Source: a virus (Duplodnaviria; Heunggongvirae; Uroviricota; Caudoviricetes). From it: a DNA stretch of 15,604 nt. Made by a program: the position numbers and the translations under genes. Shown here one piece after another: positions 192 through 15,604 of this stretch. Location: IMG/VR virus record IMGVR_UViG_2657245483_000005, one strand, 5' to 3'. The notes beneath the pieces are model-generated. The model was not told the origin of the DNA. It worked only from the letters and a program-made list of their open reading frames with translations, and searched no databases. Each line of letters begins with the position of its first letter. Within the stretch, counting starts at the first letter, position 1.

Positions 192-245
192 GGTAATGAC
201 TCCAACTTATTGATAGTGTTTTATGTTCAGATAATGCCCGATGAC
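192..245 (-). mobile_element. insB: IS1 terminal fragment (right inverted repeat plus insB 3' end), cut off by the scaffold gap
   Basis: ggtaatgactccaacttattgatagtgttttatgttcagataatgcccgatgac matches the IS1 right end as I remember it. The minus-strand translation ends [12 protein letters not shown]-stop, the InsB C-terminus. Confidence 0.85.
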
Positions 246-255
246 NNNNNNNNNN
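246..255. other. Assembly gap (run of 10 N)
   Basis: Ten consecutive n characters directly after the IS1 fragment, consistent with a scaffold join at a collapsed repeat. Confidence 0.95.
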
Positions 256-600
256 GGGACCGTGCTGCGCTTTGCCGATGGTTCGCAGGTAGAACTTACC
301 CCTGGCGTGCACAGCTTCGATAAGCGCGTTACCGAGCACTGGGCTTTTGGTGCGCATGCGCAGGCCATCAGTGAAGAAGATCTGAAGCAGAGCCAGGGAG
401 GCGAAGACCTCTCGCTTAAGATCTCGGCGCTGGAATCCACCATCGCCGGCCTGCAGCAGCAGGTGACGGATAAGGATGTCACTATCGCAGAGCAGTCAGA
501 CACCATCGCCGGCCTGCAGCAGCAGCTGGATGATCTGACTGAGAAGCTTGCATCACAGGAGGCTGGCAATGCCAAAAAACAGCCTTCTGCCAACAAGTGA
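256..600 (+). CDS. Phage structural protein, C-terminal fragment (5' end lost in gap), coiled-coil-like tail with repeated TIAGLQQQ
   Basis: Open frame from the gap to TGA at 598-600, immediately upstream of and overlapping the next phage gene. A 25-bp perfect direct repeat (438-462 and 501-525) encodes the repeated peptide. Confidence 0.6.
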   Translation, partial: GTVLRFADGSQVELTPGVHSFDKRVTEHWAFGAHAQAISEEDLKQSQGGEDLSLKISALESTIAGLQQQVTDKDVTIAEQSDTIAGLQQQLDDLTEKLASQEAGNAKKQPSANK

Positions 601-976
601 TCAATTCCGCACCGACTTTCCTGAGTTTGCCAACACCACCCGCTATCCAGACGCCGCGGTAAATTTTTACCTCTGCCAGGCTGACGCCATCCTCAATCAG
701 GATGTGCACGGCGACCAGTTCGTTTACCTGGCGGAGCTGTTCACTGCGCATTACGTTGAGCTGCGTGGTCGCGCGCTGGCGGGCGCCTCTGGCGGCTTTG
801 TCAGTAGCGGTGGCAGCGGCGTAGCGTCGTCGAAGTCTGTCGATAAGGTCAGCGTCAGCTATGACAACTCGGGCACCATCAACCCTGACGCCGGATTCTG
901 GAATAAAACCGGATACGGCCAGGAGTTCTTCTGGTGGTGGTTGATGTTCGGTGCTGGCGGGCGGCAACTGTTATGA
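569..976 (+). CDS. Phage head-tail joining protein (DUF4054-like, tentative)
   Basis: ATG at 569 is preceded by AGGAGG at 556-561. The track's TTG start at 548 is less likely. Position upstream of the sheath and a size of about 135 aa fit; the family name is from memory only. Confidence 0.6.
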   Translation: MPKNSLLPTSDQFRTDFPEFANTTRYPDAAVNFYLCQADAILNQDVHGDQFVYLAELFTAHYVELRGRALAGASGGFVSSGGSGVASSKSVDKVSVSYDNSGTINPDAGFWNKTGYGQEFFWWWLMFGAGGRQLL

Positions 977-1479
977 GCGGCGTGAAGGTCAGGGCAGACA
1001 ATGCCGCATCCGTGCTGGCCGGGCTGGACAGAGTGTCCCGCATGGATGTGCTGGTGGGCATCCCTGAATCCAACGCTGTGCGTGAGGATGGGGAAGATCT
1101 CAACAACGCTGAGATCGCCTATCTGCAATCCACCGGGGCGACGGTCCGGCTCGGTGGGCAGGAGGTGACCTTGCCGCCGCGCCCGTTCCTGGACATCGGT
1201 ATTGAGGATTCGGCAAAGGTAACTGCTGAGCACCTCAAGGCGGCCGCAGGTCATGCGCTCGATGGCAATTTCTCTGGTGCTGAGCGCGAGCTTACCAGCG
1301 CAGGTCAGCTGGCATCGGATGCCGCGAAGCGCGTTATTACGGATGGTGATCGGCTGGCACCAATATCCGATTTCACTATCCAGAAACGCAGAGAGCGCGG
1401 GTACGCAGGCATTAAGCCGCTGTATGACCATGGCTATCTGCTTCGCTCGATCACCTTCGTTGTGAGAGGTAAAAAATAA
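973..1479 (+). CDS. Hypothetical phage virion morphogenesis protein
   Basis: ATGA start/stop overlap with the upstream gene at 973-976 (translational coupling); 168 codons in the late operon. Confidence 0.7.
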   Translation: MSGVKVRADNAASVLAGLDRVSRMDVLVGIPESNAVREDGEDLNNAEIAYLQSTGATVRLGGQEVTLPPRPFLDIGIEDSAKVTAEHLKAAAGHALDGNFSGAERELTSAGQLASDAAKRVITDGDRLAPISDFTIQKRRERGYAGIKPLYDHGYLLRSITFVVRGKK

Positions 1480-1865
1480 TGCCTTTTCTCGATGTCACCG
1501 ATGTGTTGTCGGATCCTGATTTTTGCGATTACACGCTGGTCTGCATCCGCAACCACCAGGCGAAGGATGCTGACGGCTTCGTGACCAATACGCCGGAGGA
1601 TATTCCGTTTAACGGCGTGGTCACCGTCGACCGCTCGCTGGAAGCCCGGCGCATGGCGGCAGGGCAGGTTATTGGCGGCGCAATCCTGGTGGTTACCACC
1701 TTCCGCTTAACGCAGGGCCTGCCCGGTCAGGATGCTGACGTGGTGCTCTACAACGGGCGGCATTACCGCGTAACGTTTGTGGATCCGTACACCTCATATG
1801 GTGCCGGGTTCGTTCAGGCCCACTGTGAGCTGGTGGAGTTTAACGGAGGTACGCCAGTTGAATGA
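1479..1865 (+). CDS. Hypothetical phage protein (head-tail joining / tail completion region)
   Basis: TAATG overlap with the upstream stop at 1477-1481 and GAGAGG upstream; 128 codons. Confidence 0.7.
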   Translation: MPFLDVTDVLSDPDFCDYTLVCIRNHQAKDADGFVTNTPEDIPFNGVVTVDRSLEARRMAAGQVIGGAILVVTTFRLTQGLPGQDADVVLYNGRHYRVTFVDPYTSYGAGFVQAHCELVEFNGGTPVE

Positions 1866-2400
1866 CACCACACATCCCGGATACCTGACGCCTACCAGCC
1901 AGCCGCCGCAGTACGACCAGGCGCTTGAGCGCGAGCTCAGCCGGTGGATTCGCGGTGTTTCTGGCCTGCCGGATGGCATGGCCATACCACGCTTTACTGA
2001 CCCTCAGCCAGCGATCCCGGTGCTGGGCACCAACTGGTGCGGGTTTGGTATCACAGACTTCCAGGACACAGCCAACCCGGCATCGGTCACCAGGGACGAC
2101 GACACCGACTACCAGTGGCAATTCGAATCGCTGGTGGTGCTCTGCTGTTTCTACGGCCCTGCAGGCCAGGCTTACGCCAAAACGTTTCGTAACGGTCTGT
2201 TCGTGTCCCAGAACAACGCTGAGCTAAATCGCGTCGGCCTCACGCTCGGCGAGGTGGGCCGAATCATCCCGGCGCCCGAGCTCGTTAACAACCAGTGGCA
2301 GCGTCGCTACGACCTGTCTGTGACGCTACGCCGCAAAACGGTACGCGAGTACGGCATCAAATCCATCCTCTCTGCTCCAGTACAATTTTTCGGAGATTAA
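1858..2400 (+). CDS. Hypothetical phage protein (start codon uncertain)
   Basis: Frame is open from 1777, but ATG 1777 lies 89 bp inside the preceding gene. TTG at 1858 follows GGAGG at 1845-1849 with 8-nt spacing and overlaps the upstream stop; the stop is at 2398-2400. Confidence 0.55.
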   Translation: MNDTTHPGYLTPTSQPPQYDQALERELSRWIRGVSGLPDGMAIPRFTDPQPAIPVLGTNWCGFGITDFQDTANPASVTRDDDTDYQWQFESLVVLCCFYGPAGQAYAKTFRNGLFVSQNNAELNRVGLTLGEVGRIIPAPELVNNQWQRRYDLSVTLRRKTVREYGIKSILSAPVQFFGD

Positions 2401-2403
2401 ATC

Positions 2404-3894
2404 ATGCCTAACGGCTTATCTGTATCACGCGTCGTTCGCGTGCAGGTCGCGCTCGCCGTTCGCGCGGCGGCCGGGCGTAACTTCGGCGCGCTGCTGGTTC
2501 TCGGCACCGCCGACGTAATCACTGCCCCGGAAGTGATGCGCCTTTACCAGGATATCGAAAGTGTCGCCACCGACTTTGGCACTACCGCTGAAGAGTACAA
2601 GGCGGCAAACCTTTACTTCCAGCAGTCGCCGCAGCCCCGCGATCTTTATATCGGAAAACTGGAACGCGCCTCCAGCCCGGCAACGGCCGGCAAGCTCACT
2701 GGTGCTGTACTGACCTCTGCAGAGCAGGCAATCGCAAACTTCACCGCGGTTGACGATGGCGCGATTAAGATCTCGGTGGACGGCACTGTTAAAACCGTAA
2801 CGGGTATCGACCTGTCAGCGGTGACCGATCTGGCCGGAGTAGCGACGGCCATCACTGCGAAACTTACCGGCACCGCCGTTTCCTACGTGGCCGGCTCGAA
2901 TCAGTTTGTGGTGACGTCTTCCACTACCGGGGCCACCTCAGCAATTGGTATTCCTGTTGCTGCCGGCACTGGCACTGACCTGGCGCCGCTGCTGGGCATT
3001 GACTCAGCGCATAACCCAACCGTGTCAAACGGCCAGGATGCTTCATCTTCAGTGCTGCCGTCGGTGAACACAGCGCTGAACTACTCAGCCGACTGGTACG
3101 GCCTGGTTATCGCCGATACTGCAATGACGGACCAGGACCATATCGATGTTTCTGCCCTGATCGGCTCTGCGAGCGATTCCCGGGTGTACGGTGTGACGAC
3201 TGCGGCGGCCGAGGTCCTGGACTCAACCAGCACCACGGATATTGCCTACAGGCTGAAAGCCGCCGGTTATGGCCGCACGTTCTGCCAGTACAGCCAGGTG
3301 CCTTATGCCGCAGCCTCTGCCTTTGGTCGCGCGTTCACAGTAAATTTCCTGGGTAACAACACCACCATTACCCTGAAATTCAAGCAGGAACCGGGCATTA
3401 CTGCCGAGACGATCACCGCGCAGCAGGCCGATACGCTCAAGGCAAAAAACTGCAACGTATTTGTGCGCTACGCCAACGATACCGCCATCATCCAGGAAGG
3501 CGTGATGTCCAACGGCGATTTCTTCGACGAGCGCCACGGCCTCGACTGGCTGCAGAATTACGTCCAGAACAACCTCTGGAACCTGCTTTACACCTCAACC
3601 ACCAAAATCCCGCAGACCGAAGCGGGCGTGACGCGCCTGGTGACCAATGTCGAACAGTCGATGGACCAGTCTGTAAACAACGGTCTGGTGGCACCGGGAA
3701 TCTGGAACGGCGGTGACGTCGGACAGCTGACATCAGGCGATATGCTGACCAAAGGCTATTACGTTTACGCGAACCCGCTCAACGCCCAGGCGCAGGCAGA
3801 TCGTGAAGCGCGTAAGGCGCCGGTGATTCAGGTAGCAACCAAACTGGCGGGGGCTATCCACTTCGCTGATGTATTAATCGACGTGGTGCGCTAA
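2404..3894 (+). CDS. Tail sheath protein (DUF3383-like)
   Basis: 496-aa ORF directly upstream of the tube, frameshifted chaperone and tape measure; size and position are typical of a myovirus sheath. GGAG precedes the ATG. Confidence 0.8.
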
Positions 3895-3905
3895 GGGGGC
3901 ACTGA

Positions 3906-4346
3906 ATGAGCACTTATTCTTTTCTGGATATCACGGGGTCAATGACTGGCCCCACCGGGGTGATTGACCTCGGCGCCGGTTCTGCCAACTCCGAAGAGGG
4001 CATTACCATCGCCATGGTCGAAAACAAAAACACCATGACGATCGGCGCTGACGGCGAGGGCATGCACTCCCTGCACGCCGGCAAGGCTGGAACGGTAACC
4101 GTTAACCTTCTGAAAACCTCGCCGGTGAACAAAAAGCTGTCTCTGGCCTACAACGCGCAAAGCCAGTCCTCAGCGCTGTGGGGTAATAACGTCTTTGTGT
4201 TCCGCAACACTGCATCTGGCGACATCATGACCGCGCGCGGCGGCGCCTTCCAGAAGCACCCCGACTGGCAGAACGCCAAAGAGGGCGGGACGGTGGCCTG
4301 GGTGTTCGACTGCATCAAAATTGACCCGTTCCTGGGGGAGTATTAA
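3906..4346 (+). CDS. Tail tube protein (DUF3277-like)
   Basis: 146-aa ORF between the sheath and the tail assembly chaperone; AAGGGGG RBS upstream. Confidence 0.75.
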   Translation: MSTYSFLDITGSMTGPTGVIDLGAGSANSEEGITIAMVENKNTMTIGADGEGMHSLHAGKAGTVTVNLLKTSPVNKKLSLAYNAQSQSSALWGNNVFVFRNTASGDIMTARGGAFQKHPDWQNAKEGGTVAWVFDCIKIDPFLGEY

Positions 4347-4349
4347 TTC

Positions 4350-4775
4350 ATGGAAATTACTATCAAGTATCAGCAGTACCGTATCGCTAAGTTAAGCGTT
4401 TTCGAACAGCTGAAGGTATCCCGCAAGCTGCTGCCGGTTCTGGCGGGTCTGGTTTCTGACTTCCGTAACATCCAGACGAAGCTGAATGCCAAAGACACCG
4501 AAGGCGCGATGGAAAGTATTCTTCCGAAGATCGCTGGCGCCGTTTCCGGCCTCAGTGATGATGATGTGAATGCGATCCTTTTTCCCTGCCTGCAGGTGGT
4601 GGCGCGCAAACACTTGAGCGCCTGGGTGCCGGTGTGCCAGCAGGGCACCATGGCCTTTGACGATATCGACCTGTTCGTGATGCTGCAGCTTGTGGCGCGG
4701 GTGGTCGCCGATTCGCTGGGAAATTTTTTGCAAGGACTTCCTACCAGCGAGACGAACACCCAGCCTGCGGAATAA
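4350..4775 (+). CDS. Tail assembly chaperone, short product (lambda G / P2 E analogue)
   Basis: 141-aa ORF immediately upstream of the tape measure; it contains a slippery heptamer near its 3' end and a -1 frame that is open to the tape measure start. Confidence 0.75.
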   Translation: MEITIKYQQYRIAKLSVFEQLKVSRKLLPVLAGLVSDFRNIQTKLNAKDTEGAMESILPKIAGAVSGLSDDDVNAILFPCLQVVARKHLSAWVPVCQQGTMAFDDIDLFVMLQLVARVVADSLGNFLQGLPTSETNTQPAE

Positions 4776-4963
4776 CCTTTAACACCCTGCCGGGCGGTGA
4801 GGATTACATCCTTCGCCCGGCGCTCGCCTTCAACCTCGATCAGAAAGACCTCGACAGCGGTGCAGTGGACCTGTGCCGCATCGCGCTGCTTAACGATTAC
4901 CTCGATATGCGTGACGATAACGACGCGCGCGTAGCCAAATGGAGAGCCCAGAACAATGGCTGA
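4350..4963 (+). CDS. Tail assembly chaperone, -1 frameshift-extended product (GT / E+E' analogue, about 204 aa)
   Basis: The -1 frame entered at A_AAT_TTT (4721-4727) has no stop until TGA 4961-4963; I translated it codon by codon. The extension fills the otherwise ORF-free 180 bp before the tape measure ATG at 4956. Confidence 0.65.
4721..4727 (+). promoter_or_regulatory. Programmed -1 ribosomal frameshift slippery site (A_AAU_UUU)
   Basis: The heptamer fits X_XXY_YYZ in the zero frame (gga AAT TTT ttg). It is followed by more Ts and sits 16 codons before the zero-frame stop. Confidence 0.6.
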
Positions 4964-6935
4964 TACTATCCGTGATTACCTGGTCTCTCTGGGGTTCGAT
5001 ATCGACGGCGCGGGCCAGGCGAAGTTTGAAGCCACGCTCAAAGGTGTGGCCGCGAACGTCGTAAAACTGGGGGCCATAGTTGAGTCGACGGGGCTGGCCA
5101 TTGTGGGCTTCACCGCCTCGATCGCCAGCGGCCTTGATAAACTCTACTGGGCCGCGGAACGCACCGGGGCATCGGTCAACGGCATCAAGGCGCTTGGCTA
5201 TGCTGCCTCACAAACCGGCTCCAGCGCCGAGGCTGCCCAGAACTCACTGGAGAGCCTGGCGCGCTTCATGCGCAGCAATCCCGGCGCCGAAGGCTTCCTG
5301 AACCGCCTGGGGGTGCAGACCCGGGACGCTTCCGGACAGATGCGCGACATGTCGGCTATCTTCACCGGCGTCGGCCAGCGCCTCAGCAGCATGCCCTATT
5401 ATCGAGCCAATCAGTTCGCGCAGATGCTGGGCATTGACGAAAACACGCTGATGGCAATGCGGCGAGGAATGTCCGGCTTCACGGCTGAATACCAGTCGAT
5501 GATGCAGAAGACAGGCTTCGATGCTGACAGGGCCGCGCAGCAGTCCAACAAGTTCATGACCTCAATGCGCAACTTCGTTTCGCTACTGGGGATCTTGCGC
5601 GATAAGGTTGGCTCGAATCTGGCCGGCGGCCTGAGCGGCACGCTGAACAATCTCAGCAAGCAGATGCTGGAGAACTGGCCGAAGATAGAGGGCGTGGTCA
5701 CGAAGATAGTGAAGGGGGTGCTCTTTGCTGCTGATGTCATTACCCAGATGGCGTGGCGCGTCTCGCAGGCGGTAGGCGGCCTGATTGAGTGGTTTAAAAA
5801 GCTGCCGCCGGATATACAGCAGCTAATCATGCTGGTGTCCGGGCTGGTTTCGGCGTGGCAGCTGCTTAACGCTGAGTTCCTCAAATCGCCGATAGGTATC
5901 GTAATCGCGCTAGGCTCGGCGCTGTTCGCGCTTTACGACGACTACAAAACCTGGAAAGAAGGCGGTCAAAGCCTGCTGCCCTGGGATAAATGGGAGCCAG
6001 AAATAGAGGCTGCCCTGAAATCGCTTGGCGAGCTGCGGGATTCTGTGAAGGCGATAGGGGTTGAAATCGCAAAGCTGCTCAATATCAACCTCAAAAACTG
6101 GACCCTTAAAGGCGACATCGACAACCTCACTAAGCAGTTCGGTGAGTTTGGCAAGATGATTAAGATGATTGGCGACCTGATAAACGCCATCAACGAGGGG
6201 CGTTGGAAAGATGCTTATGCGATCGGCAAGAACCTGCTGGCACAAGGGCAAGGCCAGGATGCTCTACCTGCAGTATCTGACAGCGCTAACAATACTGCTG
6301 ACTGGATAGAGGGCAAGACGGGGTTCGACCCGCGAAGCATCGGGAAAACAATAAACGGGTGGATTTTCGGCAAAGAAGAGGGCGGCTCAGACCAGCAGGA
6401 GAGCGGCCCGGGCAAGACGCTGGCCGACCGTAACAACAATCCTGGCAACCTGCGCCCCGTCGGCGGCACCGGTTTTACCTCTCATCAGACGCCGCTTGAT
6501 GGTTGGATGGCAATGGCCAGGCAGATCCGTCTTTATTTCACCGGAAAAAGCGCGGCCGCCGGGTATGAAAAACTCCAGTCAATATGGGACATCATCCACA
6601 AATACGCACCTGCCAGCGACAACAACGACCCCGAGGCCTATTCGAACTTCGTAGCCAATATGATGGGCGTGGGCGCTAAGGACACGCTGAACCTGAGCGA
6701 CCCGCAGCAGTTCAGCAACCTTCTGCAGGCCATGTCCAGGAAGGAAGGTTACGGTCAGTGGAATTCCCCATTGGCCAGCGTTGCCGCTACGCAGGCAGCC
6801 GCGCAGATCAGCCAGGAAACGAACATCAATATTTACGGCGCGAGCGACCCGGCATCCACTGGCCGGGAGGTTGCCGATCGTCAATCCGGCGTTAATTCCC
6901 GTCTTACTCAGCAGCTACAACCGAGGGTCTACTGA
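4956..6935 (+). CDS. Tail tape measure protein
   Basis: 659-aa ORF immediately after the frameshifted chaperone, with a GGAGAG RBS. Ala/Gly/Gln-rich with a helical-looking composition, and the longest gene in the module. Confidence 0.85.
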   Translation: MADTIRDYLVSLGFDIDGAGQAKFEATLKGVAANVVKLGAIVESTGLAIVGFTASIASGLDKLYWAAERTGASVNGIKALGYAASQTGSSAEAAQNSLESLARFMRSNPGAEGFLNRLGVQTRDASGQMRDMSAIFTGVGQRLSSMPYYRANQFAQMLGIDENTLMAMRRGMSGFTAEYQSMMQKTGFDADRAAQQSNKFMTSMRNFVSLLGILRDKVGSNLAGGLSGTLNNLSKQMLENWPKIEGVVTKIVKGVLFAADVITQMAWRVSQAVGGLIEWFKKLPPDIQQLIMLVSGLVSAWQLLNAEFLKSPIGIVIALGSALFALYDDYKTWKEGGQSLLPWDKWEPEIEAALKSLGELRDSVKAIGVEIAKLLNINLKNWTLKGDIDNLTKQFGEFGKMIKMIGDLINAINEGRWKDAYAIGKNLLAQGQGQDALPAVSDSANNTADWIEGKTGFDPRSIGKTINGWIFGKEEGGSDQQESGPGKTLADRNNNPGNLRPVGGTGFTSHQTPLDGWMAMARQIRLYFTGKSAAAGYEKLQSIWDIIHKYAPASDNNDPEAYSNFVANMMGVGAKDTLNLSDPQQFSNLLQAMSRKEGYGQWNSPLASVAATQAAAQISQETNINIYGASDPASTGREVADRQSGVNSRLTQQLQPRVY

Positions 6936-7510
6936 TGGATATTTTATCGGTCATCTTCCGGCTGCAGTCTCGGAAAATAGGTATTTTTGTACCTGACGTG
7001 GTGGTGTCGGAGAAGCATGTTGATGCCCTGGAAATCACTGAACATCCGGTGGAGTTTGGCGCCGCCATAAACGACCACGCCTATAAGCGCGCCAGCGAGG
7101 TCACTATGGAGTGCGGGTTTGCCGGCGGCGGGTCGGTACTCGACCTGGTAAATCTGTCCAGCATAGGCTTGCGGGTTGGCGAGAGCCCAAGGGAGATTTA
7201 TCAGCAGTTGCTGGATCTGCAGAAATCCCGGGTGCCGTTTGATGTTGTTACCGGCAAGCGCACCTACAGCAATATGCTGATACGCGCTATCGAGGCCACG
7301 ACGGACCGAACCAGCGAAAATGTGCTGTCATGCGTTCTGACGCTGCGGGAAGTGATCATGTCGGATACGCAGAGCATCACTGTTACGGATAAGGCCAACA
7401 TGCAGGAGGGAGTCAGCACCGCGCCAGTACAGAATACAGGGATGAAATCTCTGGTGCCGACCAGCAGCTCATCTGTAATTCAAAAGATAGCCGATTTTGC
7501 GAGGGGATAA
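6935..7510 (+). CDS. Hypothetical baseplate / tail-tip associated protein
   Basis: TGATG overlap with the tape measure stop; 191 aa, located between tape measure and baseplate hub. Confidence 0.65.
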   Translation: MDILSVIFRLQSRKIGIFVPDVVVSEKHVDALEITEHPVEFGAAINDHAYKRASEVTMECGFAGGGSVLDLVNLSSIGLRVGESPREIYQQLLDLQKSRVPFDVVTGKRTYSNMLIRAIEATTDRTSENVLSCVLTLREVIMSDTQSITVTDKANMQEGVSTAPVQNTGMKSLVPTSSSSVIQKIADFARG

Positions 7511-7815
7511 TGAGCGTTAATGAGATTCCGATGATCCCTGATAACCAGGAGTTTCGCATCACCCTGGGCGACATAAGCTACACGCTCCGCGTGCTATGGC
7601 GCGACGATGCTGGCTGGATAATGGACGTTATGGATAGCGGCGCGCAGCCTCTGTTAATGGGCGTCCCCCTGGTGCCGGGGGTTAACCTTTTGGCTCAGTA
7701 TCCGGATCTGGGGATATCTGGCGCACTGGTGGTCATGACAGACAACGGAGCCCCTGAATACCCGACGAAAACAAACCTTGGTGCCTCGAGCCATCTTTAT
7801 TTTGTTCAGGAATAG
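7510..7815 (+). CDS. Hypothetical small baseplate-region protein
   Basis: TAATG overlap with the upstream gene; 101 aa. Confidence 0.6.
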   Translation: MSVNEIPMIPDNQEFRITLGDISYTLRVLWRDDAGWIMDVMDSGAQPLLMGVPLVPGVNLLAQYPDLGISGALVVMTDNGAPEYPTKTNLGASSHLYFVQE

Positions 7816-7818
7816 CCC

Positions 7819-8889
7819 ATGACTATTAACTGGAATCGCCATTTTGAACTGCGGCTTCTGAACGACAAGGGGAATGGCATATCCCTGTCGGACTTTAAAG
7901 TTACCTTCGCAATCGACTGGTTTAACTCGATGTGGCCACGTGTGGCGACGCTTAAAATTTACAACCTCAAGCGTGACACAATCACCCGGATTACGGGGGA
8001 TGAGTTTTCTCGCATTACCATCATAGCCGGTTATAACGGCCTGGCGCCGACGGTTACTGAAAGCGAGGTTGGGCAGGTTACCGAGATTTCATCTGAGCAA
8101 ACCGGCCAGACGCGCGGGCAAAATTACGGAGTCATTTTTGATGGGGAGATTCGTTTTACGATAACCGGGCGCGATAATCCTACCGATATTTTTACGCTAA
8201 TTCAGTCGGTAGATGGTCATAAGGCGTTCAACGAAGCCGTATCGTCCGGCAGCCTGGCGGCAGGATATAAGCTTGCCGACGTGCATACACTTCTGATGAA
8301 GGACTTTTCGCCTTACGGCATCACCCAGGGCATCACCGGGCAGTTCCCTGACAGGGTGATGCCACGCGGTCGCGTCTTCTTCGGCGCAACGCGCGACTAC
8401 ATGAGCAACCTAGCGGCGCAGTGCGAGGCTAACTGGCAATTTGTCGACGGCCAGCTGCAAATGGTGCCTGAGAATAAATATCTCCATGAAGCGATCGTGC
8501 TTAACACCAAAACTGGCCTGGTCGGTATGCCTCAGCAAACCATGGGGGCAGGCGTTAATGTGCGCTGTCTCATTAATCCAAACATTCGGGTTAACGGGCT
8601 TATTCAGTTGAACCAGGACTCGGTGTATCGCTCGCAATTACCGAACGATGAGATCCAAAGATCACAGGCAAGGATTACTGAGGCAAATGATAATGGTAAT
8701 CTTAGTACAGGCAGCGCGACGCTTGCGCAGCCCGCCAGTGTGGCAACTGATGGCGTTTACATAGTTCAGTCAATCAGCTACACCGGCGATACGAGAGGGA
8801 ATCCGTGGTATATGGATCTCATGTGTATGGCCAGAGGGGCGCGTGATTTACAATCGAATACGGCCCTACAGCGAACGGCTCCACAATGA
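7819..8889 (+). CDS. Baseplate hub protein (Mu gp44 / P2 gpD-like, tentative)
   Basis: 356-aa ORF located where the hub sits in Mu/P2-like baseplate modules, upstream of the spike, gpW-like, gpJ-like and gpI-like genes. Confidence 0.5.
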   Translation: MTINWNRHFELRLLNDKGNGISLSDFKVTFAIDWFNSMWPRVATLKIYNLKRDTITRITGDEFSRITIIAGYNGLAPTVTESEVGQVTEISSEQTGQTRGQNYGVIFDGEIRFTITGRDNPTDIFTLIQSVDGHKAFNEAVSSGSLAAGYKLADVHTLLMKDFSPYGITQGITGQFPDRVMPRGRVFFGATRDYMSNLAAQCEANWQFVDGQLQMVPENKYLHEAIVLNTKTGLVGMPQQTMGAGVNVRCLINPNIRVNGLIQLNQDSVYRSQLPNDEIQRSQARITEANDNGNLSTGSATLAQPASVATDGVYIVQSISYTGDTRGNPWYMDLMCMARGARDLQSNTALQRTAPQ

Positions 8890-9242
8890 AAAAAATACTT
8901 TTTTTGGTTTCTTTAGCATTCGTCAGTTTTTCTTCTACAGCGGCAAACACCGCTTATATGAAGTGTGGTCCCTTTACTTTCTCAACCTCATCAAGCAACG
9001 ACGGATATCCGAGGATAAACGGAGCAAAGCCTGATAGTCAGAAGGTGACATTCCTCAAAAAAGAGGGAGATTATGACAATATTAAAATGCAATGGATTGT
9101 CATGAATGAGAATTCTGGGCAGCGCTATGGTCTTGATTATATAAAACGCAATGGGAGAGGGATACTCAATGCCGAGGCCATCAGAATGAACATGAATGAA
9201 CCTCGAGTGTTTGGAACTTACGACTGCGTGAAGGCTAAGTAA
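8886..9242 (+). CDS. Small secreted protein of unknown function, cargo gene, AT-rich
   Basis: N-terminal signal peptide MKKILFLVSLAFVSFSSTAA with no lipobox, two Cys in the mature part, and composition sharply AT-richer than the flanking genes. The start overlaps the hub stop (ATGA at 8886-8889). Confidence 0.7.
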   Translation: MKKILFLVSLAFVSFSSTAANTAYMKCGPFTFSTSSSNDGYPRINGAKPDSQKVTFLKKEGDYDNIKMQWIVMNENSGQRYGLDYIKRNGRGILNAEAIRMNMNEPRVFGTYDCVKAK

Positions 9243-9251
9243 TTTAATAAA

Positions 9252-9272
9252 GGCGCCGGAACTACCGGCGCT
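9252..9272. terminator. GC-rich hairpin between convergent genes (candidate bidirectional terminator, better for the minus-strand gene)
   Basis: ggcgccgg / aacta / ccggcgct forms a 7-bp GC stem plus one G-U pair. On the minus strand it is followed by the U/A-rich tract ttattaaatt; on the plus strand the T-run is interrupted. Confidence 0.5.
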
Positions 9273-9275
9273 CAG

Positions 9276-9626
9276 TTACTCGTCTTTAAAACTTATAATT
9301 TTGTACTGCTCCAGTACTTCTGAAAGCTCCTTTGATGTCAGATTTTGTATTTCGATCGTACCTTTTTCAGTGGTTACCGTTATTTTTTTTGATGATCTGG
9401 TCTGTAACCATTTTCTCGCTATCGATGCAATGGCGATACAAGCTGGTGATGATGTGATAACGGTAATAGATATTTCGAGAATTGTGCCAATAGCGCCAGG
9501 AGAATCACCCGTTCTGACTCTTTTACTTACTACATAGTCATTAGCGGGTATGTTATCCTGGATTACAGGAAGTAACTCTTTCCAAATAGCTGGAGTAAAT
9601 TTTATGGTTGTTTCTGATTTTGGCAT
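9276..9626 (-). CDS. Hypothetical cytoplasmic protein, cargo gene, AT-rich
   Basis: 116-aa minus-strand ORF inside the AT-rich insertion, hydrophilic and balanced in composition. The plus-strand ORFs over the same DNA look like antisense junk. No strong RBS was seen, so the exact start is uncertain. Confidence 0.55.
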   Translation of the reverse strand: MPKSETTIKFTPAIWKELLPVIQDNIPANDYVVSKRVRTGDSPGAIGTILEISITVITSSPACIAIASIARKWLQTRSSKKITVTTEKGTIEIQNLTSKELSEVLEQYKIISFKDE

Positions 9627-9805
9627 AAAGGTTTCAGGCCCCTATCGAGAGAAGCTAAAAATTGCCTACCGGCTTTTCCTTAGCAGCCTGTATCTTGCTA
9701 CAAATCACGACGTTACCGTGGTTCTAAGCAAAACCTATATTAAGAGCTGCAATGAAGATAAATAGCACGCATTAACTCACCCTCAAATCCTGACATTTGA
9801 TCAGT

Positions 9806-12054: not shown

Positions 12055-12731
12055 GTAGGTACACGGATCTAATCACTAACTACCACGCCACTAAGCCGAA
12101 ATACCTCGATCACATCGATCTTAGTACCCGTCCCCTGATTGATATCACGTCAGCCACAAGGGGCCTGGTGAGTGCGTTTGACATTGATACGGCTGTTGGC
12201 GTGCAACTCGATATTCTCGGACTCTGGATTGGACGTAGCCGTATAGTCAGCCAGCCCATTAGTGGCGTTTATTTCAGTTGGGACACGGAGGGGCTCGGAT
12301 ATGACCAGGGCGTATGGCAGGGGCCATATGATCCTGACTCCGGCTATACGACGCTTAGCGATGATACCTATCGCACTATTCTGAAAGCAAAAATCGCTAT
12401 TAACAACTGGGACGGGCGTAACGACTCGCTTCCGGACATTCTTGACACTGCCACAGTGGGTTCGGGCCTGAAGATGCAGATCGTCGACAATCAGGACATG
12501 ACGATATCGGTCTGGGTATTTCCCGAGACTGATATTTCTGATGTGTCTCTCGAACTGATCGCCGCTATCAAACAGGGCTATCTCACCGTTAAAGCCGCTG
12601 GCGTCTGGGCCGGTGATGTTGAAATGCCTTCGGTTGAAACACCGTCCGAAGGAACAAAATTCTTTGGATTTGACATGGATAACGAATACATCGCCGGTTT
12701 TGATGACGGCGCATGGGGGAGATTACTTTAA
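12051..12731 (+). CDS. Baseplate wedge / tail-fibre attachment protein (gpI-like, DUF2612-like)
   Basis: ATGA overlap with the gpJ-like stop; 226 aa, immediately upstream of the tail fibre gene. Confidence 0.6.
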   Translation: MSRYTDLITNYHATKPKYLDHIDLSTRPLIDITSATRGLVSAFDIDTAVGVQLDILGLWIGRSRIVSQPISGVYFSWDTEGLGYDQGVWQGPYDPDSGYTTLSDDTYRTILKAKIAINNWDGRNDSLPDILDTATVGSGLKMQIVDNQDMTISVWVFPETDISDVSLELIAAIKQGYLTVKAAGVWAGDVEMPSVETPSEGTKFFGFDMDNEYIAGFDDGAWGRLL

Positions 12732-13510
12732 TGGCTGGAACTAATGATTTTAAAGCGTTTGCGACAGATGCTAATGCAAATGTTACCTCGCAGGAGGAAT
12801 GGGAGACGCTAACCGCACTGAAGAAAGGATTCTCCTCGGGTAAAGCATCCAGCGCACAGGTCAGTAAAGCGCTGCGCCAACCGTCGACGATGGCGGCTGT
12901 ACTGGGGCAGTTTATCGCGAACGCCGAACTGGACGCGCTCGATGATGGTGACGTTGATGGACTGGTGGCAAAGCTGGCGACAGCGATTACCACAAACCTT
13001 GGTTTGGGAGAAGGCTCAGCATTACCCGTTGGCGTACCTGTTCCGTGGCCTTCAGCCACACCGCCGACAGGCTGGCTGAAATGCAACGGTGCCGCTTTTT
13101 CTGCTGAAGAATACCCGGAACTGGCAAAGGCTTACCCGACAAATAAATTGCCTGATTTACGTGGTGAGTTTATTCGTGGCTGGGATGACGGGCGTGGAGT
13201 GGATAGCGGTCGTACTTTATTAACGAATCAAGAGCATGCAGTAATTTCTCATAATCATGGAATACCTACAAAAGTGGGGTCAGTTACTAATATCCCGTAT
13301 GGAATAGAACAGGTTATATCTGATGAAACCATTTTTTCATCAGCAAAAACAGTTGGTGTGGATTACTGGTCTAACAGTGAAAGAGTTTTTACTTATACCT
13401 CTGGTGGAAGAAATGGTGCTGAATCAGTGAGTTCACCTGATGCCTCCTCTTTAATTAAAGAAACCAGACCACGGAACCTAGCATTTGCGTATATCGTGAG
13501 GGCTGCATAA
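12731..13510 (+). CDS. Tail fibre protein: constant N-terminal part (codons 1-90) plus currently joined variable C-terminal part
   Basis: TAATG overlap start at 12731 (an alternative in-frame ATG lies at 12713). The C-terminal part contains LPDLRGEFIRGWDDGRGVDSGRTL, a collar-type motif I recall from tail fibre proteins. A crossover site sits at codons 86-94. Confidence 0.8.
   Translation: MAGTNDFKAFATDANANVTSQEEWETLTALKKGFSSGKASSAQVSKALRQPSTMAAVLGQFIANAELDALDDGDVDGLVAKLATAITTNLGLGEGSALPVGVPVPWPSATPPTGWLKCNGAAFSAEEYPELAKAYPTNKLPDLRGEFIRGWDDGRGVDSGRTLLTNQEHAVISHNHGIPTKVGSVTNIPYGIEQVISDETIFSSAKTVGVDYWSNSERVFTYTSGGRNGAESVSSPDASSLIKETRPRNLAFAYIVRAA
12987..13012. repeat. Left crossover site of the invertible segment (hix/gix-like 26-bp imperfect palindrome)
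   Basis: ttaccacaaaccttggtttgggagaa, central dinucleotide TT at 12999-13000. It is 21/26 identical to the reverse complement of the site at 14971-14996. Confidence 0.7.
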
Positions 13511-14112
13511 TGGTGAAAGCAAAATTAAACAGTGCGTTTATTGCCACCGTGGCAGGTGAAATCACTGTGTACAACTACCGGGGCGACACCCGCGAATACA
13601 TATCCTCATCGGTTGAGTATCTGCCTGTGGGGGTGGGTATTCCTGCCAATTCCTGTACCGATGCGCCCGGCACACATAAAGCTGGTTATGCAATCTGCCG
13701 TTCTGCAGATTTTAACTCATGGGAATATGTGCCAGACCATCGCGGTGAAACGGTATATAGCACTGAAACAGGAGAATCAAAAGAAATCACAGCTCCGGGT
13801 GATTACTCTGAAAATACAACTACTATCGCCCCGTTAACGCCATTCGATAAATGGGATGGTGAGAAATGGGTGACCGATACTGAGGCACAGCATAGCGCCG
13901 CAGTAGACGTGGCAGAAGCACAGCGCCAGTCGCTGATTGATGCTGCTATGGCTTCCATCAGTCTGATTCAGCTGAAATTGCAGGCCGGGCGGCAACTGAC
14001 GCAAGCAGAAATCACTCGCCTTAACGCTGTGCTGGATTACATTGACACGGTGACGGCAACAGATACCAGCACCGCGCCGGATGTCATCTGGCCTGAACTG
14101 CCGGAGGCGTAG
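13510..14112 (+). CDS. Tail fibre assembly protein (Mu U / lambda Tfa-like), currently expressed orientation
   Basis: TAATG overlap with the fibre stop; 200 aa; C-terminal LDYIDTV..DTSTAPDVIWPELP matches the conserved Tfa C-terminal pattern. Confidence 0.75.
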   Translation: MVKAKLNSAFIATVAGEITVYNYRGDTREYISSSVEYLPVGVGIPANSCTDAPGTHKAGYAICRSADFNSWEYVPDHRGETVYSTETGESKEITAPGDYSENTTTIAPLTPFDKWDGEKWVTDTEAQHSAAVDVAEAQRQSLIDAAMASISLIQLKLQAGRQLTQAEITRLNAVLDYIDTVTATDTSTAPDVIWPELPEA

Positions 14113-14527
14113 GCCATTCAATATCTGGAGCACTGGAGGTATCAACCAGTTCCAGTGCGTCCAGATAATCCAGCCACAAATTATATTGCGCCAGTTCCTC
14201 ACTTTTCAGACGACCAATCGCCGCTTTGCCAGGCCACTGATGAGTATTGATGTAGGTATTGACTTCAGAAACCAAAGATATTTTTTTCATTTCAGCCGTC
14301 AACACCTCATCCTCTTTTGAAGGGGGTGGGGAATTAATCCATACTGGCCGTCCTGAACTGTCAGCGCCAATTTCTTTCCCTTCTGGATGCAGCCCAAGAA
14401 ATTGCTCATATGTTTCTCTGGTAATTTCAATAACATCATCAGGAAGCGTTCCCGCATCCTCATATTCTGGAAACAATTCTTGCAGATAAAAACTTTTACT
14501 TCCGGGTGAAAAGAATACTGAGTTCAT
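14084..14527 (-). CDS. Alternative tail fibre assembly protein (U'-like)
   Basis: Minus-strand 147-aa ORF with C-terminal LDYLDALELVDTSSAPDIEWPTPP, matching the Tfa pattern; located directly downstream of the minus-strand fibre tip. Confidence 0.7.
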   Translation of the reverse strand: MNSVFFSPGSKSFYLQELFPEYEDAGTLPDDVIEITRETYEQFLGLHPEGKEIGADSSGRPVWINSPPPSKEDEVLTAEMKKISLVSEVNTYINTHQWPGKAAIGRLKSEELAQYNLWLDYLDALELVDTSSAPDIEWPTPPAVQAR

Positions 14528-14529
14528 TC

Positions 14530-14982
14530 TTACCGTCCAATGATTAATGCTGAGACGCTGGTATCTGAAGGAAAGGCTGCATTCAGTGGTTTGTCGACTT
14601 TGAACACAATCGTATTATTCCCCCTGACAGCGGCAAAAGAACAAACCGCAGTCGCGTATGAACCTGTAATATTACTGGATACACCACCATAAGCTGTTGT
14701 TGATACCAGAGGGATAACGCCCAGCACCTTATTAGGAAATACAAAGGGCAATGTGGCTGTGGCAATATAAGACTTATTAGAACCTGTAATGGCATAAGCA
14801 TTATCAGTCATTCCATTCATCGCCACCGGGCCGCTTATACTTACAGTAACCATCTGAATGATTAGCCCGTCAGGTTGACGAATCACAAAATTTCCATTGC
14901 CACCAGTAACCGTCCAGAAAGACATATCAGGGATTTGGTTTTCCCCGTTGCCCACATTCCGTTTTGCCGCTTCTCCCAAACC
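14530..14982 (-). CDS. Alternative tail fibre C-terminal cassette (Sv'-like), startless, fused to the fibre gene only after inversion
   Basis: Minus-strand frame open from the right crossover site to the stop at 14530. The sequence after the core encodes GLGE, the same residues that follow the core in the plus-strand fibre, and the frame matches. Confidence 0.7.
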   Translation of the reverse strand, partial: GLGEAAKRNVGNGENQIPDMSFWTVTGGNGNFVIRQPDGLIIQMVTVSISGPVAMNGMTDNAYAITGSNKSYIATATLPFVFPNKVLGVIPLVSTTAYGGVSSNITGSYATAVCSFAAVRGNNTIVFKVDKPLNAAFPSDTSVSALIIGR

Positions 14983-14996
14983 AACCTTTTTTATAA
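14971..14996. repeat. Right crossover site of the invertible segment (hix/gix-like)
   Basis: ttctcccaaaccaaccttttttataa, central AA at 14983-14984; the inner 14 bp are identical to the inner half of the left site in inverted orientation. It lies 60 bp upstream of the invertase ATG. Confidence 0.7.
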
Positions 14997-15026
14997 CCAT
15001 CAAAAATCTGGTGATGCTTCGCCGTT

Positions 15027-15049
15027 TCTCCTGTTTTCATAACAGGAGA
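15027..15049 (+). promoter_or_regulatory. Perfect 9-bp stem hairpin that includes the invertase Shine-Dalgarno
   Basis: tctcctgtt / ttcat / aacaggaga; the right arm contains AGGAG, 7 nt before the ATG at 15056. Confidence 0.5.
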
Positions 15050-15055
15050 AATCCC

Positions 15056-15604
15056 ATGATTTACGGTTATGCCCGAGTATCAACAAACCACCAGGACACT
15101 GAATTGCAACTAACGGCGCTCAAGTCAGCGGGTTGTGAGAAAATTTTTGAAGAGCATGCCAGCGGGAGGAAATCGAATCGGCCGGTTCTAAAACGGCTGA
15201 TCGCCACTATGCAGCCGGGGGATGAACTGGTGGTCTGGAAGCTGGACAGGATAGGCCGCAACGTTCTGCATGCGCTGTTGATGTTCCAGCAGTTACAGGA
15301 AAAGGGTATCAACTTCCGCAGTATTACCGATGGCGTGGATCTCAAAACAGCCAGCGGCCGCTATAACTTTCGTAACATCCTTTCCGCAGCACAATATGAA
15401 TCTGATCTTAATAGCGAACGTACCTTAGCAGGGCTGGCCGTAGCCAGGGCAAAAGGGCGAGTTGGTGGTCGCAGGCCTAAGTTCACGGATGAGCAATGGC
15501 GGGAAATGGGGGAGCGGATGGCAACCGGTGAATCACGACAAAGCGTATCAAAAACGTATGGAGTAGGGCTCTCAACTCTGTATAAAAAGTTTCCAGCTAG
15601 CTGA
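15056..15604 (+). CDS. Serine DNA invertase (Hin/Gin/Cin/Pin family)
   Basis: Starts MIYGYARVSTNHQDTELQ, with the catalytic Ser in the RVST motif, and has a C-terminal helix-turn-helix (GESRQSVSKTYGVGLSTLYKKFPA). The track ORF begins at 14897, but the family-conserved N-terminus and RBS place the start at 15056. The stop is at the window end. Confidence 0.93.
   Translation: MIYGYARVSTNHQDTELQLTALKSAGCEKIFEEHASGRKSNRPVLKRLIATMQPGDELVVWKLDRIGRNVLHALLMFQQLQEKGINFRSITDGVDLKTASGRYNFRNILSAAQYESDLNSERTLAGLAVARAKGRVGGRRPKFTDEQWREMGERMATGESRQSVSKTYGVGLSTLYKKFPAS

Follow-up and report, generated by a model that had tools for sequence, protein, structure and literature searches.

A tape measure protein of an Escherichia coli prophage with a predicted Enc34-type peptidoglycan hydrolase domain in a slot that orthologues fill with SLT domains

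The stretch of DNA analysed here, in the following called the window, is the 15,604 nucleotides of the IMG/VR virus record IMGVR_UViG_2657245483_000005 (Caudoviricetes). The window is the tail-morphogenesis region of a contractile-tailed E. coli prophage with an E217/Pam3/PB1-like tail module. The subject of the analysis is the gene for the tail tape measure protein (TMP) at 4956..6935, which encodes 659 residues followed by a stop codon; positions are those of the window, and features are on the + strand unless otherwise stated. Between a long body and a short conserved tail this TMP carries a predicted peptidoglycan hydrolase domain of the type found in the endolysin of phage Enc34.

In RefSeq the protein is called “hypothetical protein” (WP_053271607.1). 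The assignment of the open reading frame (ORF) as a TMP is nevertheless sound because phrog_2276, “tail length tape measure protein” among the PHROG profiles, matches residues 1-658, that is the entire protein, with an E value of 9.4e-222; several further TMP PHROGs match the same ORF. The matches to PF10145 in Pfam (25.5 bits, curated cut-off 33.2) and TIGR01760 in NCBIfam (19.8 bits, curated cut-off 28.8) are below the cut-offs. The gene is located directly 3' of the gene for the tail assembly chaperone and 5' of the baseplate and hub genes. From Pfam and the RefSeq context the order is sheath (2404..3894, PF11863, DUF3383, E 3e-140), tube (3906..4346, PF11681, E 9.5e-58), tail assembly chaperone (4350..4775, PF21822, E 2e-31), TMP, Dit-like baseplate protein (6935..7510, PF21821, E 1.4e-33), Pam3 gp18-type plug (7510..7815, PF22479, E 1.1e-25), hub-like protein (7819..8889, PF22759, E 4e-6, slightly short of its cut-off), spike and baseplate-J, and the same tail gene order is found in the related loci L003 and L004. 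The first-pass annotation of this DNA had called the ORF a tape measure, which the profile match and the gene order bear out, and the sequence strings and the NNNPGNLRP motif which it quoted are located where it had placed them.

The body of the TMP comprises residues 1-473 (4956..6374) and is 78% identical to the body of P0072, an orthologue which carries an SLT domain and which will be discussed below. The body had been described as rich in Ala, Gln and Leu. This is right for Ala (11%) and Leu (10.4%); Gln is outside the eight commonest residues and its place is taken by Gly (10.8%). A hydrophobic stretch is found in the body at residues ~289-327 (5820..5936, LIMLVSGLVSAW...IGIVIALGSALFALY; Kyte-Doolittle), where the hydropathy in a 19-residue window reaches its maximum of 1.5-1.9 near residues 315-318. 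One might imagine a role for this stretch in membrane insertion or channel formation. The body is followed by a linker rich in Gly, Ser and acidic residues (EEGGSDQQESGPGKTLAD, residues 474-491, 6375..6428; Gly 22%, Glu 17%, and Ser, Asp and Gln 11% each), which agrees approximately with the Gly/Ser-rich linker suggested earlier for residues 475-490. This is where the homology to the SLT-type orthologue stops. The Enc34-type domain with its six helices is assigned by homology to residues ~486-619 (6411..6812), and its end lies at about residues 613-619. The first-pass annotation had proposed a distinct domain at the C-terminus, at 6420-6780. The domain is indeed distinct and was put in the right place; it is not terminal, since a conserved tail of 46 residues follows, and it extends further, to nucleotides ~6794-6812.

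The family of the domain was found by sequence comparison at several levels. A phmmer search with the segment against the PDB sequences gave the Enc34 endolysin's catalytic domain (7q47_A, E 8.3e-6) and a protein called “Gp29” (9vvp_L, E 1.6e-5). A profile built from 55 diverse homologues matched 7Q47 with E 1e-24, over profile positions 3-115 of 121, and 9VVP with E 1.9e-28, and covered the entire domain including the RNNNPGN motif. Both Enc34 and Gp29 start the domain with RNNNPGNI, which is aligned to RNNNPGNL at residues 492-499 of the TMP, and the identity of the window domain to the Enc34-type catalytic domain is ~25-28%. Among the PHROGs, the non-TMP matches were confined to this segment and were to phrog_873 (“endolysin”, E 4e-32) and phrog_7182 (“tail injection transglycosylase”, E 8e-19). 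A word-indexed homologue search with a 140-residue segment returned 2 proteins only, and an exhaustive search was needed; a HMMER scan of 1.84 billion cluster representatives with a 160-residue segment gave 2437 matches at E<=1e-3, of which 188 reach E<=1e-10. We are therefore highly confident in placing the segment in the Enc34-endolysin family (CDD PHA02564). This type of domain is related to the lysozyme alpha-lobe of the GH73 and GH23 enzymes, in a minimal and circularly permuted form.

PF01464 (SLT/GH23) did not match residues 459-659 of the window TMP at E<=1 in Pfam, and the protein is thus not a member of the SLT family. Some of the Enc34-type TMP homologues (for example P0105-P0121 from Yersinia, of 650-656 residues) are named “lytic transglycosylase” or “lytic transglycosylase domain-containing protein” by NCBI, other close homologues are “hypothetical”, and the records of phage homologues also call the domain a transglycosylase. 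The NCBI names are not supported by a model because PF01464 does not match, and they seem to have been inherited rather than derived from a model. When the last 201 residues were scanned against Pfam and NCBIfam, the sole match was Ribophorin_II (E 0.15); this and weak profile matches to recoverin (E ~0.04) were rejected as noise.

The NNNPGNLRP motif, residues 493-501 (nucleotides 6432-6458), is part of the hallmark of the family, R492-N-N-N-P-G-N-L-R500 (6429..6455). In an alignment of 203 distinct homologous segments the residues are found as follows: R492 in 167/195, N494 in 182/199, N495 in 198/200, P496 in 187/200, G497 in 189/199 and N498 in 193/199. The RxNNPGN motif as a whole is nearly invariant, as are G516, A551, P552 and N557. 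The first-pass annotation tentatively linked such a motif to virion-associated proteins without being able to name the family. The link was correct, the family being represented by Gp29, by P5 of phage PM2 (PMC9502842) and by many BFVD “virion protein” entries, and the family can now be named.

A structure model based on the alignment is compact and confident (pLDDT 95.3, pTM 0.89) and shows an all-helical fold of six helices, lysozyme-like with the alpha-lobe only, as in the Enc34-type domain. A Foldseek resemblance to globins (E ~1) was rejected as noise. The helices which carry the key residues are 543-550, 559-570 and 583-597, and the NNPGN motif lies in a non-helical stretch which follows the short first helix. 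This is the position of the loop between alpha1 and alpha2 of Enc34, which is long and has been proposed to form a lid over the groove (Cernooka et al., PMC8943055). The motif may therefore take part in substrate binding. The structure model also disposes of the reading that there is no independent domain, only more of the extended tape-measure helix with an odd composition and a motif that arose by chance; an extended helix lacking a fold and homologues of its own was also what the first-pass annotation had named as the outcome that would overturn it. A single-sequence AF2 run, which gave pLDDT 39, could be taken in its favour; the run was uninformative and was replaced by the alignment-based model. 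The compactness of that model, the homologues 7Q47 and 9VVP, the thousands of homologues within other protein architectures and the sharp recombination boundaries around the segment, described below, refute this reading.

The residues expected in the active site are conserved as well. The signature common to Enc34 and the GH73 and GH23 enzymes is Glu131, Tyr95 and Trp79 (PMC8943055); the index of the 7Q47 chain in the HMMER alignments is the numbering of that paper +1. In the alignment to 7q47 Glu131 corresponds to E597 (codon 6744..6746), at the end of the model helix 583-597, Tyr95 corresponds to Y562 (6639..6641) within the helix 559-570, and Trp79 corresponds to Y550 (6603..6605) at the C-terminal end of the helix 543-550. 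The window protein thus has the complete signature in the form Y550/Y562/E597. Over the homologous segments position 597 is Glu in 200/201 and is followed by Gly (G598) in 179/198, position 562 is Tyr in 201/203, and at position 550 there are 124 Tyr and 77 Trp among 204 (together 201/204). A domain of this family is able to attack cell walls: the Enc34 ORF39deltaC domain lyses E. coli, P. aeruginosa and Hafnia after permeabilisation of the outer membrane (PMC8943055). The suggestion of the first-pass annotation that the segment might be an accessory domain acting on the cell wall is supported by the family match (E 1e-24) and by the muralytic activity of Enc34 itself.

The strongest evidence from the context comes from a comparison with orthologous TMPs. 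Many close relatives of the window TMP, of 735-884 residues and from Atlantibacter and Enterobacter, carry PF01464 (SLT) and are 67-81% identical to it; they come from a search with the full-length protein, which gave ~5900 TMP homologues in all. P0072, the 735-residue variant, is 78% identical over residues 1-473 and 85% over residues 614-659, with nothing alignable between the two parts; its insert contains an SLT domain at residues 569-670 (PF01464, E 7e-25). The same is seen in the DNA. The window from 557 to 6370 is collinear with 1615..7418 of L003, the locus of P0072, at 79.6% identity, and the window from 6802 to 8857 is collinear with L003 8075..10156 at 73% identity. The window sequence between them, 6371..6801, has no homology to its L003 counterpart, which is 656 nucleotides long and encodes the SLT domain. 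This gap matches almost exactly the region which had been flagged before any comparison was made. Since orthologues have SLT at the same slot we consider 6371..6801 an exchangeable lysin cassette. That a known wall-cutting enzyme sits in this slot elsewhere speaks strongly, by context, for the proposed function of the Enc34-type cassette. The two types are found in prophages of a single species, Enterobacter hormaechei (P0070 as against P0085 and P0087), and also within the genus Atlantibacter. The GC skew is -0.03 to -0.06 over 6400-6850 and +0.05 to +0.18 in the flanking TMP and baseplate genes; this is a weak signal which is consistent with a separate origin of the lysin cassette.

The tail of 46 residues, 614-659 (6795..6932, ending in LTQQLQPRVY), shares 85-95% identity with the C-terminal ends of SLT-type orthologues. 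It is kept whichever cassette is present, and it recurs in TMPs of phages whose annotation is SLT or TMP. In phage Pa193 the last 19 residues of the TMP, which end with a Tyr, bind the tail tip and hub, and upstream of this anchor residues 491-582 of the same protein, gp41, form a putative transglycosylase domain (PMC11456595). In phage phiTE the binding partners of the TMP C-terminus are proteins in the hub complex of the baseplate (PMC11972413). By analogy the 46-residue tail is probably an anchor to the tail tip or hub, with the lysin domain directly above it.

Two of the SLT-type orthologues contain pieces of an Enc34-type domain upstream of their SLT domain. These are found in P0084 (residues 482-549) and P0086 (residues 519-582 and 603-674), the 759- and 884-residue variants, as one or two copies of ~65 residues which cover helices 3-5; none was found in the 735-residue variant P0072. 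They match the 55-sequence profile at positions ~43-112 with ~22 bits and a conditional E of ~1e-8. In all of them the active site is lost: Leu stands in place of the catalytic Tyr and Thr or Asn in place of the Glu, and YAP reads YAR or YAK. A BLASTP alignment up to query residue 595 had suggested a second intact lysin in P0086, which on inspection turned out to be a degenerate partial repeat. An older lysin cassette may have left these fragments behind, or they may be a spacer put to new use. That such non-catalytic copies are kept means that the scaffold can outlast catalysis. This could be used to argue that the domain of the window TMP is an Enc34-type homologue with a non-catalytic role, as a module that binds peptidoglycan, as a spacer, or as a plug which docks the TMP at the tail tip. 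We regard this as unlikely. Unlike the fragments, the window protein has an intact catalytic Glu, as have 200/201 of the homologous segments, and both aromatic residues and the NNPGN motif are intact too; the intact pattern implies that the active site is under purifying selection. Moreover, the same slot holds a complete SLT enzyme domain in the orthologues.

The swap of cassettes together with the degenerate Enc34-like fragments upstream of SLT also raises the question of whether the lysin slot of this TMP lineage is a hot spot of serial enzyme replacement, in which enzymes of the Enc34 and SLT types have been swapped, possibly adaptively. These two observations are the sole support for such a history, which we put forward as a rather doubtful speculation. 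If the exchange were adaptive it could, for example, allow escape from periplasmic inhibitors of lysozymes and transglycosylases or help the phage to deal with modifications of the peptidoglycan. If in addition the bonds cut by the two enzymes differ, then how well the phage infects, or which hosts it can infect, would depend in a hitherto unrecognised way on the TMP lysin.

From the observed family and fold, the conserved catalytic signature, the gene context and the interchangeability with SLT we propose that the TMP delivers a local peptidoglycan glycosidase during infection, in the form of the Enc34-type domain of ~130 residues between the body and the 46-residue tail. We would give this reading a probability of roughly 0.8. 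Where the domain is located in the virion, in what state it is stored in the lumen and when it acts we infer as follows. In the virion the TMP would lie in the lumen of the tail tube with its C-terminal tail docked on the tail tip or hub. When the sheath contracts and the spike is lost, the C-terminus of the TMP would be expelled first, into the periplasm. There the domain would fold or become exposed and cut the glycan strands around the tip of the tube, with E597 as the general acid, while Y562 and Y550 would hold the substrate in place. The murein mesh would thus be opened, and the tube and the TMP, the rest of which bears the hydrophobic stretch, could reach the inner membrane.

Several points weigh against the proposal. 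A folded domain of ~15 kDa in at least three copies would be a tight fit in the lumen of the tail tube, and storage may have to be unfolded or staggered. Position 550 is a Tyr and not the Trp of Enc34, yet Tyr is the commoner residue in the family. For Enc34 itself the catalytic role of Glu131 was deduced by superposition, and the reported products of the related M4Lys are those of a glucosaminidase plus an endopeptidase, while Enc34 is argued to be an N-acetylglucosaminidase (PMC8943055). Neither Pfam nor NCBIfam has a model for the domain, so that curated boundaries for the family are absent. The enzymatic activity and the bond specificity of this TMP-embedded domain are predictions.

The TMP gene is 100% identical to a chromosomal stretch of E. 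coli NCTC11023, in which the prophage tail module at its end borders yciI and tonB. At >=99% identity the gene is present in 5/5426 complete E. coli genomes, and a megablast search of the phage collection gave no match; the element is known solely as a prophage. Between the chaperone gene and the TMP gene RefSeq has a tiny DUF6889 ORF of 32 residues (~4865-4963) which overlaps the start of the TMP gene; it may be a frameshift extension of the tail assembly chaperone rather than a gene of its own. A run of 10 N at 246-255, within the ORF 241..600 (translated as XXXX), is a masked or unsequenced stretch.

Two further regions of the window may be mentioned. Between the hub-like and spike genes is an island of low GC content, 8800-9800, with about 41% GC compared to 52-62% in the flanks. 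It contains an ORF at 8886..9242 of 118 residues, with an N-terminus like that of a signal peptide or lipoprotein (MKKILFLVSLAFVSFSSTAANTAYMKCG) and no Pfam match, and an ORF of 116 residues on the - strand at 9276..9626. L003, the SLT-type locus, has different genes at this site, and the island looks like a moron insertion. The region 12713-15604 looks like an invertible tail-fibre segment. On the + strand a fibre gene (12713..13510) is followed by one for fibre assembly (13510..14112), the - strand has an alternative assembly gene (14084..14527) and a fibre C-terminus (14530..15003), and after the latter an ORF resembling a serine recombinase reaches the end of the window. Inverted repeats of 27 nucleotides, 81% complementary, are found at 12987-13013 and 14970-14996. 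The G segment of Mu and the C segment of P1 have a similar arrangement.

The domain is widespread in other proteins. Of the 158 matched segments counted in the 149 best cluster representatives, 84 are C-terminal, 35 internal and 17 N-terminal, and 22 lie in short proteins. A tblastn search of phage genomes found it at the N-terminus of the gp16-type ejectosome proteins of Kayfunavirus (K1F-like), to which the Gp29 of 9VVP appears to belong by tblastn, and in endolysins of Chivirus (of Enc34 type) and of Vibrio autolykivirus. A literature search found no paper on PDB 9VVP, and the review PMC5380687 has nothing on the domain of K1F gp16. Other TMPs with the domain are those of Klebsiella phage ST405-OXA48phi1.2 (52% identity) and Aeromonas 4_D05. 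The fold matches in BFVD are mainly “virion protein” or “internal virion protein D”, and in PHROG scans the large carrier proteins match “tail injection transglycosylase”. The structural protein P5 of PM2 has the same fold and the same W/Y/E triad (PMC9502842), and the N-terminal domain of an effector of a type VI secretion system (T6SS) has been likened to Enc34 (PMC13340143).

The chief value of the analysis is one of annotation: a “hypothetical” TMP gains a predicted Enc34-type lysin, for which E597 is a catalytic residue that can be put to the test. A family of endolysins characterised not long ago is thereby extended to virion-associated lysins of contractile-tailed phages. The exchange between SLT and Enc34 type is a natural experiment on the question of whether the kind of wall-cutting enzyme in the TMP matters for infection. 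Small lysin domains for Gram-negative bacteria which can fold alone also have some appeal as modules for enzybiotics. Lysins embedded in TMPs are already well known, though this enzyme family is a less familiar one, and the general view of phage entry is unchanged. In the literature searched we did not find the Enc34-type domain as a module of a TMP, or its one-for-one exchange with SLT; Enc34 or PHA02564 occurred together with “tape measure” only incidentally.

The characterised members of the family, Enc34 ORF39 (PHA02564, 7Q47) and M4Lys of phage BSPM4, are endolysins encoded in lysis cassettes (PMC8943055). This could suggest that the window domain too is mainly an enzyme of late lysis, released like an endolysin from unassembled TMP, and not one of entry. 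We consider this very improbable. The window protein is not a full-length endolysin of a lysis cassette: its domain is internal in a structural tail protein (residues ~486-619 of 659) and its gene has tail genes as neighbours, within the tail-gene block. The protein lacks a signal sequence, a signal-arrest-release (SAR) segment and the C-terminal transmembrane domain found in Enc34; no hydrophobic segment follows the domain, and hydropathy maxima are found only at residues ~44-47 and ~315-318. The slot is exchangeable with SLT domains, which are typical of virion-associated lysins, and many family members are ejection or virion proteins.

The role in entry proposed above can be compared with other virion-associated systems. 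In P5 of the corticovirus PM2 and the autolykivirus “peptidoglycan hydrolase” the fold and the W/Y/E signature are the same and the protein is virion-associated (PMC9502842), but these phages lack a tail, contain a membrane and have the domain as a small protein of its own, whereas the window domain is embedded in a TMP. The GH73 N-acetylglucosaminidases and the GH23 transglycosylases and g-type lysozymes have no match to the window domain at the sequence level (Pfam), and the window domain has no beta-lobe; the helix order of Enc34 is permuted relative to both families (PMC8943055). Gp29 of Kayfunavirus, relatives of T7, has the same domain, and infection drives this protein out of the virion into the cell envelope. 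There it is N-terminal in an internal head and ejection protein of ~1295 residues of a podovirus, whereas in the window it is near the C-terminus of a myovirus TMP. At the place equivalent to that of the Enc34-type domain in Gp29, gp16 of T7 carries a transglycosylase (SLT) domain. Both lineages thus have SLT-bearing relatives at the equivalent slot, T7 gp16 in one and P0072 in the other.

The closest likeness is to other TMPs. Pb2 of T5 (Boulanger 2008) and Tmp of TM4 (Piuri & Hatfull 2006) have been described, according to papers citing these works, as TMPs with embedded muralytic domains. Lysin mutants of TM4 Tmp and of T7 gp16 show defects under conditions such as stationary-phase cells or low temperature. 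T5 Pb2, TM4 Tmp, Pa193 gp41 and the SLT-type orthologues P0072-P0100 all have the architecture of the window TMP, a long body followed by a lysin domain and a C-terminal tail-tip anchor, and the same presumed role, that of a lysin which attacks peptidoglycan once the TMP has been ejected. The enzyme of T5 Pb2 is a zinc peptidase, TM4 Tmp has an Rpf-like or other hydrolase motif, and the lysins of Pa193 and P0072 are of the SLT/GH23 type, whereas the lysin of the window TMP is of the Enc34 type.

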